Of a stretch of DNA of 64,000 nt, positions 3,880 through 9,438 are shown piece after piece. Position 1 is the stretch's first letter. The number at the start of each line of letters is the position of its first letter. The position numbers and the translations under genes were made by a program. The DNA comes from Escherichia coli (lineage in GTDB: Bacteria; Pseudomonadota; Gammaproteobacteria; Enterobacterales; Enterobacteriaceae). The notes under the pieces were generated by a model, which made no database searches, had not been told where the DNA came from, and saw nothing but the letters and a program-made list of their open reading frames with translations. The stretch lies in NCBI RefSeq assembly GCF_009931435.1, contig NZ_CP043414.1. One strand, written 5' to 3'.

Positions 3880-4079
3880 TCATCATTCCCACAATGGCTG
3901 GCTAATTGTCAGCCATTTTTTCAACTCTCTCAAAATTTGCGATTTTTGAGAGAGTTTTAGTTATCTCTGTAATCCTTGCCCGTAAATTCGTGATAGCCGT
4001 CGTAAAGCTATCACCAGCTGGCGAAGATTTCGCCAGTCACGTCTACCCTTGTTATACCTCACACCGCAAGGAGACGATC

Positions 4080-5618
4080 ATGACCAACAATCCCCCTTCA
4101 GCACAGATTAAGCCCGGCGAGTATGGCTTCCCCCTCAAGTTAAAAGCCCGCTATGACAACTTTATTGGCGGCGAATGGGTCGCGCCCGCCGACGGCGAGT
4201 ATTACCAGAACCTGACGCCGGTGACCGGGCAGCTACTGTGCGAAGTGGCGTCTTCGGGTAAACGAGATATCGATCTGGCGCTGGATGCTGCGCATAAAGT
4301 GAAAGATAAATGGGCGCATACTTCGGTGCAGGATCGCGCGGCGATTCTGTTTAAGATTGCCGATCGAATGGAGCAGAACCTCGAACTTTTAGCGACGGCT
4401 GAAACCTGGGATAACGGCAAACCCATTCGCGAAACCAGTGCTGCTGATGTGCCGCTGGCGATTGACCATTTTCGCTATTTTGCCTCGTGTATTCGGGCGC
4501 AGGAAGGTGGGATCAGTGAAGTTGATAGCGAAACTGTGGCTTATCACTTCCACGAACCGTTAGGCGTGGTGGGGCAGATTATCCCGTGGAACTTCCCGCT
4601 GCTGATGGCGAGCTGGAAAATGGCACCCGCGCTGGCGGCGGGCAACTGCGTGGTGCTGAAACCCGCACGACTCACTCCGCTTTCCGTTCTGCTGCTAATG
4701 GAAATTGTCGGTGATTTACTGCCGCCGGGCGTGGTGAACGTGGTCAACGGTGCGGGCGGAGAAATTGGCGAATATCTGGCGACCTCGAAACGCATCGCCA
4801 AAGTGGCGTTTACCGGCTCAACGGAAGTGGGCCAACAAATTATGCAATACGCTACGCAAAACATTATTCCGGTGACGCTGGAGCTGGGCGGCAAATCGCC
4901 AAATATCTTCTTTGCTGATGTGATGGATGAAGAAGATGCCTTTTTCGATAAAGCGCTGGAAGGCTTTGCACTGTTTGCTTTTAACCAGGGCGAAGTTTGC
5001 ACCTGTCCAAGTCGTGCCTTAGTTCAGGAGTCTATCTACGAACGCTTTATGGAGCGCGCCATCCGCCGTGTCGAAAGCATTCGCAGCGGTAACCCGCTCG
5101 ATAGCGTGACGCAAATGGGGGCGCAGGTTTCTCACGGGCAATTGGAAACCATCCTTAACTACATTGATATTGGTAAAAAAGAGGGCGCAGACGTGCTCAC
5201 CGGCGGGCGGCGCAAGCTGCTGGAAGGCGAACTGAAAGACGGCTACTACCTCGAACCGACGATTCTGTTTGGTCAGAATAATATGCGCGTGTTCCAGGAA
5301 GAAATTTTTGGTCCGGTGCTGGCGGTAACCACCTTCAAAACGATGGAAGAAGCGCTGGAGCTGGCGAACGACACGCAATATGGCCTGGGCGCGGGTGTCT
5401 GGAGCCGCAACGGTAATCTGGCCTATAAGATGGGGCGCGGTATTCAGGCAGGGCGCGTGTGGACCAACTGTTATCACGCTTACCCGGCACATGCGGCGTT
5501 TGGTGGCTACAAACAATCAGGCATTGGCCGCGAAACCCACAAAATGATGCTTGAGCATTACCAGCAAACCAAGTGCCTGCTGGTGAGCTACTCGGATAAA
5601 CCGTTGGGGCTGTTCTGA
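4080..5618 (+). CDS. aldB: NADP-dependent aldehyde dehydrogenase
   Basis: 512-aa product from ATG at 4080 (the track ORF extends upstream in frame); preceded by AAGGAG; ALDH catalytic motifs ([16 protein letters not shown]). Confidence 0.9.
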
Positions 5619-5627
5619 TGTAAGAAG

Positions 5628-5664
5628 CTGGTCGCATCGGGTATTCATTGCCTGATGCGACGCT
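5628..5664. repeat. REP-like palindromic element / aldB terminator hairpin
   Basis: gtcgcatc...gatgcgac inverted repeat containing the REP consensus-like GCCTGATGCGACGC. Confidence 0.5.
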
Positions 5665-5895
5665 TTCGCGTTTTACCAATTCAAATGTCTACGTCTTGAA
5701 TGACTGAATATTGATTGAACTTAATTACGAGTCTCCTCGCATCTTTTCAACAAGTTACTGCACACCGTTATTCTTCTTCCGAACGGCATTCCTGAGTCAA
5801 CTTTATCCCCCTGACGGCCCATATAAATCGCGCTATCGTGATTGTTATTGCTAAATGTGTGTGTGTCGTGTGTATAATCATGGAAGGGCAGGGAT

Positions 5896-6081
5896 GTGAA
5901 AAGTGCAGACGTGATCGCCATCCTGAAGCAGCATGGCTGGGAACATATTCGAACCCGTGGTAGTCATCATCAGTTCCGCCACCCTGTTCATCCGGGTCTG
6001 GTGACGGTTCCGCACCCTAAAAAAGATATTAAGCCCGGTACGCTGGCGCAAATTGGGCGTCAGGCTGGTTTAACATTTTAA
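5896..6081 (+). CDS. HicA-family mRNA interferase toxin (predicted)
   Basis: 61-aa ORF with GTG start; motif RTRGSHHQFRHP and C-terminal PHPKKDIKPGTLAQIGRQAGL resemble the HicA/YcfA family; 16 nt upstream of a HicB-like ORF; TATAAT at 5873-5878. Confidence 0.6.
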   Translation: MKSADVIAILKQHGWEHIRTRGSHHQFRHPVHPGLVTVPHPKKDIKPGTLAQIGRQAGLTF

Positions 6082-6097
6082 AATTTCAGGAGGCAAT

Positions 6098-6508
6098 ATG
6101 TTTTATCCCGCCTATATCCACAGTGATCCTGACGGCAGCGCCAGCGGTTTTTTCCCTGATGTTCCAGGCTGTTATTTTGCTGGTGATACGCTGGACAACG
6201 CTTTCCAGGATGCGCGAAGTGCACTGGTCGCGCACTTCGAAACCTTATGCGAGATGAATGAAGAGTTGCCGCTTCCAGGCTCTGTGGAAACACATCTGGT
6301 CCAGCGTGCGCAGGACTTTATTGGCGGGCAATGGTTGCTGGTGGATATCAATATGAATCAGTTCGAAGGTCGGGCTGAACGTATCAATATTACGATGCCG
6401 AAAAGATTACTGAACAAGATTGATACCTACGTGCGCAATAACCCAGACTACGCCAACAGAAGTGCGTTTCTGGCGGAAGCTGCCCGGCGTGTATTGCCGG
6501 GCGTTTAA
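6098..6508 (+). CDS. HicB-family antitoxin with C-terminal ribbon-helix-helix domain (predicted)
   Basis: 136-aa ORF; N-terminal HicB-like fold signature (YPAYIHSDPDGSASGFFPDVPGCYFAGDT...ELPLP); C-terminal RHH-like segment INITMPKRLLNKIDTYV...NRSAFLAEAARRVL; SD AGGAGG 6 nt upstream of ATG. Confidence 0.6.
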   Translation: MFYPAYIHSDPDGSASGFFPDVPGCYFAGDTLDNAFQDARSALVAHFETLCEMNEELPLPGSVETHLVQRAQDFIGGQWLLVDINMNQFEGRAERINITMPKRLLNKIDTYVRNNPDYANRSAFLAEAARRVLPGV

Positions 6509-6840
6509 TCTCGCGTTTCGATGGTGAGCGGGCGGACCAGGCTGTACAGCCACAGACCAAAACAAGCGATGGTGCCAATCACCACGGTGAGGAACACACT
6601 GACTGACAGGCCTGCAAGCAATCCCGCAGGCAGGGCCAGCAGGCCGTGGATCACGGTGTCGTTCCATCTCACCTGATCGTAGCCAAACATGCCTAAAACG
6701 CCGCAAACCAGACCGTAAATCACCATTGGTGTTCCGAGGCCAATCAGCAATAAACGGTAGATAATTGAAGGTTTAATACGCTTTATCTGTACTGTGGATG
6801 TTTTACTGGGGTTATTCATTAGTTTGGTCAATAGTTCCAT
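6505..6840 (-). CDS. Hypothetical small inner-membrane protein (two or three predicted TM helices)
   Basis: 111-aa product from ATG at 6840 inside a 127-aa ORF; hydrophobic stretches IIYRLLLIGLGTPMVIYGLVCGVLGMF and LLALPAGLLAGLSVSVFLTVVIGTIACFGLWLY; convergent with the hicB-like gene and overlapping its 3' end by 4 nt. Confidence 0.4.
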   Translation of the reverse strand: MELLTKLMNNPSKTSTVQIKRIKPSIIYRLLLIGLGTPMVIYGLVCGVLGMFGYDQVRWNDTVIHGLLALPAGLLAGLSVSVFLTVVIGTIACFGLWLYSLVRPLTIETRD

Positions 6841-7001
6841 TATTTCAATATGATAAACCTCGACCTGTTGAAAAGCCAGGTAGCACACTTCAGAAAGTAT
6901 ATAAAAAACAATATGTCGTTATATAAATAAGGAAATTGCACTGCATCATGGCATTTCATAATATGCGTTAATTGTTCTTTTTTATATTCTCTGAGGGAAA
7001 T

Positions 7002-7325
7002 ATGTTCCTGGACTATTTTGCACTGGGAGTGCTTATTTTTGTATTTCTGGTGATATTCTATGGGATTATTATTTTACATGATATTCCCTACCTGATTGCT
7101 AAAAAACGTAATCATCCTCATGCCGACGCCATTCATGTTGCTGGTTGGGTGAGTCTTTTTACGCTGCATGTTATCTGGCCATTTTTGTGGATTTGGGCCA
7201 CGCTTTACCGCCCGGAGCGGGGATGGGGAATGCAAAACCATGACTCCTCCGTTGTGCAACTACAACAGCGTATTGCCGGGCTGGAGAAACAGCTCGCCGA
7301 CATCAAATCCTCTTCTGCCGAGTAA
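7002..7325 (+). CDS. yiaW: Small inner-membrane protein (DUF3302 family)
   Basis: 107-aa product from ATG at 7002 with GAGGGAAA SD; membrane helices; immediately followed by yiaV. Confidence 0.85.
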
Positions 7326-7330
7326 TACTT

Positions 7331-8467
7331 ATGGATTTACTGATTATTTTGACCTATGTGGCTTTCGCATGGGCAATGTTTAAGATCTTCAAAATTCCTG
7401 TAAATAAATGGACCATTCCCACCGCGGCCCTGGGTGGCATATTTATTGTCAGCGGTCTAATTCTGTTAATGAACTATAACCATCCGTATACCTTTAAAGC
7501 GCAAAAAGCGGTTATTTCTATTCCTGTTGTCCCGCAGGTGACAGGCGTGGTGATCGAAGTGACGGACAAGAAAAATACGCTGATTAAAAAAGGTGAGGTG
7601 CTATTTCGACTGGACCCGACGCGTTATCAGGCGCGGGTGGATCGGCTGATGGCGGATATCGTTACCGCAGAACATAAACAGCGGGCGTTGGGCGCAGAGT
7701 TAGATGAGATGGCGGCGAATACTCAGCAGGCAAAGGCCACGCGGGATAAATTCGCTAAAGAGTACCAGCGTTACGCACGCGGCAGCCAGGCGAAAGTAAA
7801 CCCGTTTTCAGAACGCGATATTGATGTGGCGCGGCAAAATTATCTGGCGCAGGAAGCCTCCGTAAAGTCATCGGCGGCGGAACAAAAACAGATCCAGAGC
7901 CAGCTGGATAGCCTGGTGTTGGGTGAACATTCTCAAATCGCCAGCCTGAAAGCGCAGCTCGCGGAAGCAAAATATAACCTTGAGCAGACGATAGTGCGTG
8001 CGCCGAGCGATGGTTATGTGACCCAAGTGCTGATTCGTCCGGGTACCTATGCCGCATCGCTGCCGCTACGTCCTGTGATGGTGTTTATACCCGATCAGAA
8101 ACGACAAATTGTGGCGCAGTTCCGTCAGAACTCCTTGCTGCGACTGGCTCCCGGCGATGATGCGGAAGTGGTGTTTAATGCTCTGCCAGGTAAGGTATTC
8201 AGCGGTAAGCTGGCAGCCATTAGTCCAGCTGTTCCCGGCGGAGCTTATCAGTCGACCGGCACCTTACAGACGTTAAACACAGCATCGGGTTCAGATGGCG
8301 TTATCGCGACCATTGAACTGGATGAGCACACTGAGTTGAGCGCTTTACCAGACGGTATTTACGCCCAGGTGGCGGTTTACTCTGATCATTTCAGCCATGT
8401 CTCGGTGATGCGCAAAGTGCTGTTACGCATGACCAGTTGGGTGCATTACCTTTATCTCGATCATTAA
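7331..8467 (+). CDS. yiaV: HlyD/EmrA-type membrane fusion (periplasmic adaptor) protein
   Basis: 378-aa ORF; N-terminal TM anchor, long coiled-coil region, C-terminal beta-barrel typical of membrane fusion proteins. Confidence 0.85.
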
Positions 8468-9438
8468 TCTTCGCTTTCCGCCGCTTGTTCAGGCCGCAGT
8501 TGCTGCGACTGAGCAAGCTGGTGGCGAATTTCACGCAGCATTTCATCCAGCACATACTGGACCCGCCAGGGCTGGTATTCCCGTTTACGGAAGATAGCCA
8601 CCAGATCCAGCCACCATTCATACGGTTGCTGAAAGCAGGGCACCAGCGTGCCGTCTTGCAGGTCGCTCTGCACACTTTTGTCTGGCGCAAACACAATCCC
8701 CAGGTGATTTCGTGCCAGCTCCAGCGCCGATTGCGTGTTGTCGCAAACGTAATTTCCCTTCACGCGATAATCCCGCACCTCTTTACTCCCGGCGACGTTG
8801 AAGCGCCAGATATTCGCGTCGTCGATCATCATCGAGTCGATCAAAATACAGGAGTGATGTTCGAGTTCGTCAGGACGGCTAATGGGATGTTTCGCAAGAT
8901 AGCGCTGACTGGCATAAGCGGTTACGGCATATTGCGTAATAAAACTGGCAACCAGCGATTCATCTTTTGGTGGAGCATAGCTGATTAAAACATCACAATC
9001 ATCGGGAAATTCGACACCTTCATAAAAGGCATTACGCTCAAGATTGCAGGTTTTTAGCGATAAGGTGATATCACCGATATCTTTAATTTTATCGATAACA
9101 TGTTTGGATAAATAGGTAATTATGCCGGTTGGGGCGTAGATGGTGACCCGACCACGTTTCTCATGCTTATAATCTGCAATAAAATTATTAAGTTGCTCGT
9201 TTCTGTCCAGCATGTCGTTGATGTACGGTAACAGCGCGGTACCAAAAGGTGTGAGCATCAGCTGCCGGGTGGTTCGGTCAAAGACTTTTAAACCTACTTT
9301 TGATTCAAAATCAGCAAGATATTTGCTGACGTTGGCCTGTGCGAATCCAAGTACAGTCGCGGCATGGCTGATATTTTCACTGGCAGCGATTACCGAGATA
9401 ATTTTTAACTCCCGGTACTTAAGTTGTAATTTTGTCAT
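8464..9438 (-). CDS. yiaU: LysR-family transcriptional regulator
   Basis: 324-aa ORF; N-terminal HTH ([19 protein letters not shown]) and LysR substrate-binding domain; divergent from yiaT. Confidence 0.85.

Follow-up and report, generated by a model that had tools for sequence, protein, structure and literature searches.

The minus-strand open reading frame (ORF) at positions 6505–6888 of a 64,000-nucleotide (nt) Escherichia coli window (the whole stretch of DNA analyzed here, within which all coordinates are given) lies tail to tail with hicB, the antitoxin gene of a hicAB toxin-antitoxin (TA) module. We consider it very probable that this ORF is a vertically inherited gene for a 104-amino-acid (aa) inner-membrane protein of an unnamed family, that its product is not a component of HicAB, and that the gene is being lost in E. 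coli.

Coding status and start codon

An earlier note on this DNA had described the ORF as a small membrane-protein gene of uncertain coding status that looked unannotated. The ORF list and the sequence agree that the hydrophobic minus-strand frame is real; it comprises 127 aa from GTG 6888, and in-frame ATG codons at 6840 and 6819 give forms of 111 and 104 aa, respectively. The gene is in fact annotated, as the Prokaryotic Genome Annotation Pipeline (PGAP) lists the 104-aa form as a hypothetical protein (WP_001064341.1). The doubt about coding was resolved, in favor of a membrane-protein gene, by homology search and by a coding-like substitution pattern. An exhaustive scan with HMMER covered 1.84 billion cluster representatives (50% identity clusters) and returned 164 of them at E ≤ 1e-3 and 26 at E ≤ 1e-10, with homologues spread over several genera and classes. 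Nearly all of the 164 were 95–125 aa long and aligned, from their own residues 1–5, to query residues ~31–124; the best match (P0039, 104 aa, 57% identity) aligned with its residues 1–103 to query residues 24–126. A word-indexed single-sequence protein search had found the protein in Escherichia only, and the orphan status that this implied was overturned by the exhaustive scan. Orthologues occur in four enterobacterial genera and in Pseudomonas; the locus search, which used strict patterns from a three-sequence alignment, recovers close relatives only and says nothing on Salmonella or Klebsiella.

Pairwise Nei-Gojobori estimates gave dN/dS ratios of 0.09 for E. coli versus E. whittamii (dS 0.28), 0.13 for E. 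coli versus Escherichia sp. E1V33, 0.045 for Pseudocitrobacter vendiensis versus P. faecalis, and 0.14–0.30 between genera. The frame is intact in all three Escherichia species, among which dS was 0.23–0.28. These ratios indicate that the frame is under purifying selection. The alternative of a small RNA locus found no match in Rfam (positions 5500–7200, E ≤ 1). According to the earlier note, a frame disrupted or unconserved in related genomes would have spoken against a gene. The frame is kept in other species, whereas within E. coli it is in part disrupted, since a deletion allele is common.

The start at ATG 6840 (or GTG 6888) favored by the earlier note did not hold. The N-termini of the homologues align to Met24 of the 127-aa form and thereby place the start at ATG 6819. 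This start is further supported by the upstream frame, which is closed by stops within 10–20 codons in Citrobacter amalonaticus, both Pseudocitrobacter species and Franconibacter, and by the higher divergence of the 23-codon extension, in which 7 of 23 positions differ between E. coli and Escherichia sp. E1V33, compared with 93% identity in the protein body. The extension at 6820–6888 is most likely 5′ untranslated region (UTR) and promoter, not coding sequence. In E. coli, −10-like hexamers (TATCAT/CATATT) can be read ~28–36 nt upstream of ATG 6819, and such hexamers stand at the matching offset in C. amalonaticus (TATTAT/TATGAT) and in Pseudocitrobacter (TATAAT; TGATATAAT, an extended −10). 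Their positions argue for a short 5′ UTR, which would exclude GTG 6888. The ribosome-binding site is weak, as had been pointed out before, and a good Shine-Dalgarno sequence is missing ahead of all three candidate starts.

Protein architecture and family profile

A Kyte-Doolittle plot of the 127-aa form contained two strongly hydrophobic blocks (residues ~41–73 and ~78–122). The AlphaFold2 (AF2) model, built from an alignment of 61 family members (pLDDT 87, pTM 0.67), consists in 104-aa numbering of a strand (7–11), a helix (17–44), a hairpin (51–56), a second helix (59–95) and a terminal strand (99–103). Averaged over the 61 sequences, Lys and Arg together number 2.5 in the N-terminal segment, 2.15 in the C-terminal segment and 0.56 in the loop. 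The model and this positive-inside count give two transmembrane (TM) helices and not the third that the wording “two or three” in the earlier note had allowed. They fit a two-pass protein with both termini in the cytoplasm and a conserved W-N...H-G loop in the periplasm. Several relatives (P0046, P0099, P0138) carry N-terminal CxxC...CxxC zinc ribbons, the only domain fusions found in longer family members, and these suit a cytoplasmic N-terminus and thus an N-in topology.

Conservation in the 61-member alignment extends over an N-terminal basic segment (x-V-x-R-L/I-x-x-x-S-x-Y/F-K-L), the glycines G27, G40, G70 and G82, the pairs F45-G46 and W52-N53, the invariant G59, and the likewise invariant G88 with the L-W-x-Y-S-x-x-R-P that follows it. 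The best-conserved polar motif, F-G-x-D-x-V-x-W-N-x3-H-G, lies in the loop. In one relative (P0141, 261 aa) the complete two-TM domain is duplicated in tandem, from which we infer that the domain may pair with itself; this suggests that it works as a dimer.

Neither the window protein nor any of 119 relatives matched a Pfam family at threshold, and for the family no match was obtained in NCBIfam (at threshold), PHROGs or PADLOC or in a sequence-profile search of the PDB. Matches to Bac_rhodopsin, MgtE, PHO4, VMA21 and DUF2207_C were sub-threshold only and were rejected as hydrophobic noise. To judge from these searches and from the gene contexts described below, the family is unnamed, sparsely distributed, proteobacterial, and stands alone in variable surroundings.

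The UniRef entry of one Franconibacter daqui orthologue is labeled “DUF3566 domain-containing protein”; the Pfam model itself gave no DUF3566 match for the window protein. CofA (DUF3566, PF12089) is an actinobacterial two-TM cofactor of PBP1a, a class A penicillin-binding protein (PBP); it interacts with itself and binds PBP1a at the TM helix, and PBP1a accumulation depends on it (Sher et al., eLife 2020, PMC7205459). We compared the family with an alignment (A5) of 32 PF12089-bearing database proteins, which had been retrieved with a DUF3566 seed sequence; the seed had no other role, and no conclusion rests on it. With hhalign, the 61-sequence family alignment matched A5 with a probability of 41% (E = 2.8e-4, score 30.4) and a 119-sequence alignment with a probability of 38% (score 30.1). 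Reversed profiles scored 16–17.5, and 50 block-shuffled profiles scored ~16.5 on average and 25.9 at most. The 61-sequence match spans the N-terminal segment and TM1, and with a relaxed alignment threshold it is collinear over ~100 columns. Because the scores exceed all reversed and shuffled controls, the similarity lies above composition, but it is weak and well short of proof. An AF2 model of DUF3566 (pLDDT 80; helices 8–39, 42–54 and 64–110) has only the generic two-TM hairpin in common with the family model.

Alleles, the hicB junction and competing explanations

The features of the locus are listed below; the same gene set occurs in a 99.9% identical RefSeq genome (strain R32_14_1F, NZ_CP074749.1).

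Ends at 5618, plus strand: aldB
5679–6424, plus strand: hicA promoter, hicA and most of hicB; segment exchanged for repetitive extragenic palindrome (REP)-like sequence in most E. coli
5896–6081, plus strand: hicA, toxin gene (HicA_toxin, E = 1.9e-23)
6098–6508, plus strand: hicB, antitoxin gene, convergent with the ORF (HicB_lk_antitox, E = 8e-36)
6481–6503, plus strand: GC-rich hairpin in the final hicB codons, followed by TTTAATCT; terminator-like for hicAB, on the plus strand only
6505–6508: TTAA common to both convergent stops (hicB TAA 6506–6508; ORF TAA 6507–6505 on the minus strand)
6505–6819, minus strand: ORF, 104-aa form, predicted two-pass inner-membrane protein (ATG 6819, stop TAA 6507–6505; identical to WP_001064341.1)
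6536–6706, minus strand: 171 nt deleted in K-12-type E. coli, flanked by 5-nt direct repeats (ACCAG)
6820–6888, minus strand: upstream in-frame extension of the ORF (GTG 6888, ATG 6840)
6820–7001: divergent AT-rich spacer between the ORF and yiaW, 182 nt
7002–7325, plus strand: yiaW (DUF3302)
7331–8467, plus strand: yiaV (from the ORF list)
8464–9438, minus strand: yiaU (from the ORF list)

Among 5,426 complete E. coli genomes, 27 carry an intact, uninterrupted ORF (99.5–100% identical), and ~4,240 match it only in part. The partial-match genomes examined, K-12 and an O157-like strain, share the 171-nt deletion, which lies between the ACCAG repeats at 6536–6540 and 6707–6711. The deletion is in frame; residues 39–95, from the end of TM1 through the loop to TM2 inclusive, are missing from the 47-aa ORF that is left. 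PGAP annotates this ORF as a hypothetical protein in NZ_AKVX01000001.1, an assembly of K-12, and in many further E. coli genomes. In the curated K-12 record (NC_000913.3) nothing is annotated between yiaW and aldB, as K-12 has only the deleted remnant. The names ysaC, ysaD and ysaE were considered for this remnant and discarded, as ysaE adjoins hokA and the others gave no relevant match.

The hicAB side of the locus varies as well. Of the 27 genomes with an intact ORF, 15 retain hicAB, and in the other 12 it is replaced by REP-like sequence and an 84-nt remnant of hicB. Most E. coli, K-12 among them, and also E. whittamii have REP-like sequence of ~100 nt in place of 5679–6424 and keep the 84-nt 3′ remnant of hicB (6425–6508, about residues 108–136). 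The K-12 fragment (L002, ~1500–1570) has a 12-nt deletion and is unannotated in NC_000913.3; the E. whittamii copy lies at L014, 5307–5387. In the window itself, a REP-like or terminator hairpin (GGTCGCATC...GATGCGAC) occupies 5619–5680 directly 3′ of aldB, and extra REP copies are found at the position 3′ of aldB in K-12 and E. whittamii, where hicA and hicB are lost. B2-like strains retain hicAB and have an island with a glycoside hydrolase family 127 (GH127) gene and a major facilitator superfamily (MFS) gene instead of the ORF-yiaWVU side. In some strains, such as E. coli KKa019 (NZ_CP091664.1; L003, 3400–5925), hicAB at aldB is followed by the GH127 gene and the MFS transporter gene, an arrangement that we read as a third structural haplotype of the locus. 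By comparison among these genomes, the intact allele in the window appears as a rare, ancestral-looking state. E. coli can do without the gene and is in the process of losing it.

Several observations weigh against a maintained gene with a cofactor-like product. In ~99% of complete E. coli genomes the gene is absent or shortened, and its omega (dN/dS) of 0.27 compares with 0.01–0.08 for the neighbor genes in the same species pairs; this loss and the faster evolution point to weak constraint, and the intact allele of the window strain could itself be on the way to loss. The Escherichia alleles, whose upstream regions were read directly, have no Shine-Dalgarno sequence, literature searches on the locus gave no expression or translation evidence for the ORF, and the gene neighborhood indicates no partner protein. 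As to CofA, the Pfam threshold for DUF3566 was reached by none of the 119 members (best P0041, E = 0.33, 11.8 bits over 29 residues, cutoff 22.2), and the DUF3566 model lacks the terminal strands.

Some of these points bear on a first alternative, namely that the ORF is a decaying relic, once functional, no longer translated in the window strain and not yet interrupted. It would be in keeping with a Shine-Dalgarno sequence that is missing in Escherichia and present as AGGA or GGAGG in orthologues of other genera, with the 99% of complete E. coli genomes that lack an intact copy, and with an omega above that of the neighbor genes. The K-12 spacer between yiaW and aldB, a site assigned to yiaWV by systematic evolution of ligands by exponential enrichment (SELEX) with RpoD holoenzyme, is also listed as bound by H-NS (PMC3946193). 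We nevertheless regard a relic as rather unlikely. The dN/dS of 0.09–0.13 among E. coli, E. whittamii and Escherichia sp. E1V33, all with intact frame, indicates that purifying selection acted within Escherichia despite the weak ribosome-binding site, and the 27 intact alleles are nearly identical and free of interruptions.

A second alternative concerns the junction with hicB. The previously described 4-nt tail-to-tail overlap was borne out, as was the divergence of the ORF from yiaW across the 182-nt AT-rich spacer. The plus strand at ~6497–6514 reads CCG GGC GTT TAA TCT CGC; hicB ends in GGC GTT TAA and the ORF, on the minus strand, in GAT TAA, so that TTAA is common to both stops. The hairpin in the last hicB codons could terminate hicAB transcription. 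No terminator-like site was found 3′ of the ORF on the minus strand, and the hairpin lacks a U-tract in that direction. With no terminator behind it, transcription of the ORF probably runs antisense into hicB, and transcriptional interference with hicAB is possible. The yiaV and yiaU ORFs also converge, with a 4-nt overlap at 8464–8467, and this pair is among the E. coli excludons catalogued in PMC12288877. In the ORF list, aldB (3906–5618) opens with a TTG that precedes the annotated start by 59 codons; this extension is an artefact of the ORF listing, as the RefSeq AldB has 512 aa.

The arrangement in relatives was as follows.

Franconibacter: avtA, ORF, then convergent aldB; 45–50-nt spacer with terminator hairpin; no hicAB
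Citrobacter amalonaticus: yiaU-yiaV-yiaW, ORF, aldB; hairpin spacer; no hicAB
E. coli window and Escherichia sp. E1V33: hicAB between the ORF and aldB
Pseudocitrobacter faecalis: ORF-hicB-hicA trio on the other side of yiaUVW; same TTAA junction (GAT TAA / TTA ACC)
Pseudocitrobacter vendiensis: ORF present, hicAB absent

Thus, hicAB adjoins the ORF only in Escherichia and P. faecalis, and none was found beside the homologues in P. vendiensis, C. amalonaticus, Franconibacter, Pseudomonas, Achromobacter and metagenomic contigs. The distant homologues (Pseudomonas, Achromobacter, metagenomic contigs) occupy unrelated and often variable contexts, in which insertion sequence (IS) elements, integrases, AlpA or a Phd/ParE pair lie nearby. 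They share no conserved partner gene; small downstream ORFs of 57–72 aa were rejected for this role, as they are mutually unrelated in sequence. Since most relatives have no hicAB, the ORF appears independent of HicAB and its product is, on this evidence, not a HicAB component. We take the ORF to be the older neighbor of aldB; hicAB adjoins its 3′ end, and hicB stops inside the last codon and the stop of the ORF. Of the link to the TA module drawn in the earlier note, the positional part (the stop overlap) stands, and a general link does not, as family members elsewhere lack an adjacent hicAB. Between E. coli and P. faecalis, synonymous sites have reached saturation in hicA and hicB and likewise in aldB, yiaV, yiaW and yiaU, which indicates that the association of the ORF with hicAB is old and not a recent transfer.

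The junction could also mean that the ORF belongs to one functional unit with hicAB, be it an excludon or a tripartite module. Overlapping convergent transcripts would then let only one of the two, membrane protein or antitoxin, be expressed at a time, or the membrane protein would have a part in HicA/HicB action. The 4-nt stop overlap without an intergenic terminator, and without one on the minus strand 3′ of the ORF, is what such a unit might look like; the trio and its TTAA junction recur in P. faecalis at a different place relative to yiaUVW, and the ancient divergence of the two hicAB copies implies that the linkage persisted. We find this explanation highly improbable all the same, given that most family members have no hicAB neighbor (ten other contexts were inspected), that P. 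vendiensis has the orthologue and no hicAB, that B2-like E. coli have hicAB and no ORF, that 12 E. coli genomes and E. whittamii have lost hicAB and kept an intact ORF, and that PADLOC matches none of the genes of the locus.

Three further observations concern the surroundings of family members. In Escherichia sp. E1V33 (L015, 5742–5923), hicA was recovered in two overlapping tblastn pieces (residues 1–43 and 39–61) in different frames, which suggests a frameshifted hicA beside an intact hicB. On the 3′ side of the ORF (L017/L018, 5300–6330), the place of hicB-hicA in P. faecalis is taken in P. vendiensis by a gene for an outer-membrane protein of 246 aa that is MipA/YiaT-like, so this slot holds alternative cargo. 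A family gene (P0073) and an identical downstream 57-aa ORF recur in three flanking contexts (contigs L028, L029 and L030; 4001–4609), one beside a phage integrase and one beside AlpA, and close relatives (P0248 and P0250) come from Achromobacter xylosoxidans; this recurrence suggests a small mobile segment. From our impression of its sequence, the 57-aa ORF may derive from the C-terminal end of a periplasmic binding protein.

Under a third alternative, which we judge very improbable, the ORF would encode a toxin that damages membranes or a protein resembling holins, for example a type I-like toxin or an effector of abortive infection; its frequent loss and its residence in variable regions would be explained in this way. 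In favor are the small size and high hydrophobicity of the protein, the proximity of some homologues to integrases, IS elements, AlpA and other TA pairs, and sub-threshold matches of 3 of 61 members to Phage_holin_3_6 (best E = 0.019). Against this reading, PHROGs and PADLOC gave no match, no conserved antitoxin, antisense RNA or partner gene and no Rfam match was found, a 104-aa protein with a conserved periplasmic loop and paired terminal strands is unlike Hok/Ibs/Ldr-type toxins, and the enterobacterial synteny is with the core metabolism genes avtA and aldB.

Hence, we retain the reading of a vertically inherited membrane-protein gene. The annotation question is settled, in that the gene is real and starts at ATG 6819, and the 47-codon ORF between aldB and yiaW is a deletion remnant which an unannotated hicB fragment adjoins. 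The results define a family of ~100 residues with two TM helices, comprising at least 164 clusters at 50% identity, without Pfam, NCBIfam or structural assignment, and a natural allelic series is available in E. coli, with the ORF intact beside hicAB, intact in its absence, or shortened by the 171-nt in-frame deletion. Otherwise this is an ordinary accessory membrane-protein gene of an undescribed family and of modest interest, to which the conserved convergent overlap with an antitoxin gene adds modestly.

Proposed mode of action and comparison with known systems

In the modeled fold, a short cytoplasmic N-terminal strand would lead into TM1 (~17–44), the periplasmic loop, the long TM2 (~59–95) and a C-terminal cytoplasmic strand, which would pair with the N-terminal one. 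The protein may self-associate in the membrane and may be a small accessory subunit that binds another membrane protein via its TM hairpin and loop. Our best guess, held with low confidence and drawn by analogy, is an accessory subunit in the membrane that associates with itself and acts in the manner of CofA; a CofA-like membrane cofactor in Proteobacteria is a testable lead for the family. A fuller version, in which the family would be the proteobacterial counterpart of CofA, bound to the TM helix of a bitopic membrane enzyme (a class A PBP in the case of CofA) and controlling its stability, and in which obligatory convergent transcription across the common TTAA stop would in addition tie its expression to the antitoxin wherever hicAB is kept, strikes us as improbable.

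YiaW, encoded 182 nt away on the opposite strand, is likewise a small inner-membrane protein (~107 aa). The two are unrelated in sequence, and the ORF has no DUF3302 match; yiaW is operonic with the HlyD-family gene yiaV, and in Pseudocitrobacter and Franconibacter the ORF does not lie beside yiaW. The junction with hicB resembles the excludons reported with ExcludonFinder (PMC12288877) in its tail-to-tail genes and predicted transcript overlap, as the hicB and ORF transcripts must overlap where no intergenic terminator separates them. It differs in that the ORF/hicB pair is absent from K-12, the source of such catalogues.

CofA is the closest parallel to the protein itself. The DUF3566 hallmarks D-P-W-S and C-terminal L-v-G-G-i-E-v-t-L are not conserved in the family, and the DUF3566 model has a helical loop segment in addition to its missing terminal strands. 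The family is proteobacterial and not actinobacterial, lacks the gyrA-tRNA context reported for cofA, and has no known PBP link. Both are domains of ~100–120 residues made up almost wholly of two TM helices, with cytoplasmic termini in both AF2 models and by the positive-inside count of the family, a likeness that is generic and does not discriminate; some members of both bear N-terminal cytoplasmic extensions. The segments paired by hhalign are as follows: V-x-V-x-R-l-x-x-x-S-v-x-K-L and TM1 of the family with L-q-v-r-R-v-D-P-W-S-v-L-K and TM1 of DUF3566, FG..tV.wNG with mGVwd.lNG, and GLWlYS with GAFVYN. Finally, CofA self-interacts, and the tandem-duplicated family member hints at self-association here as well.

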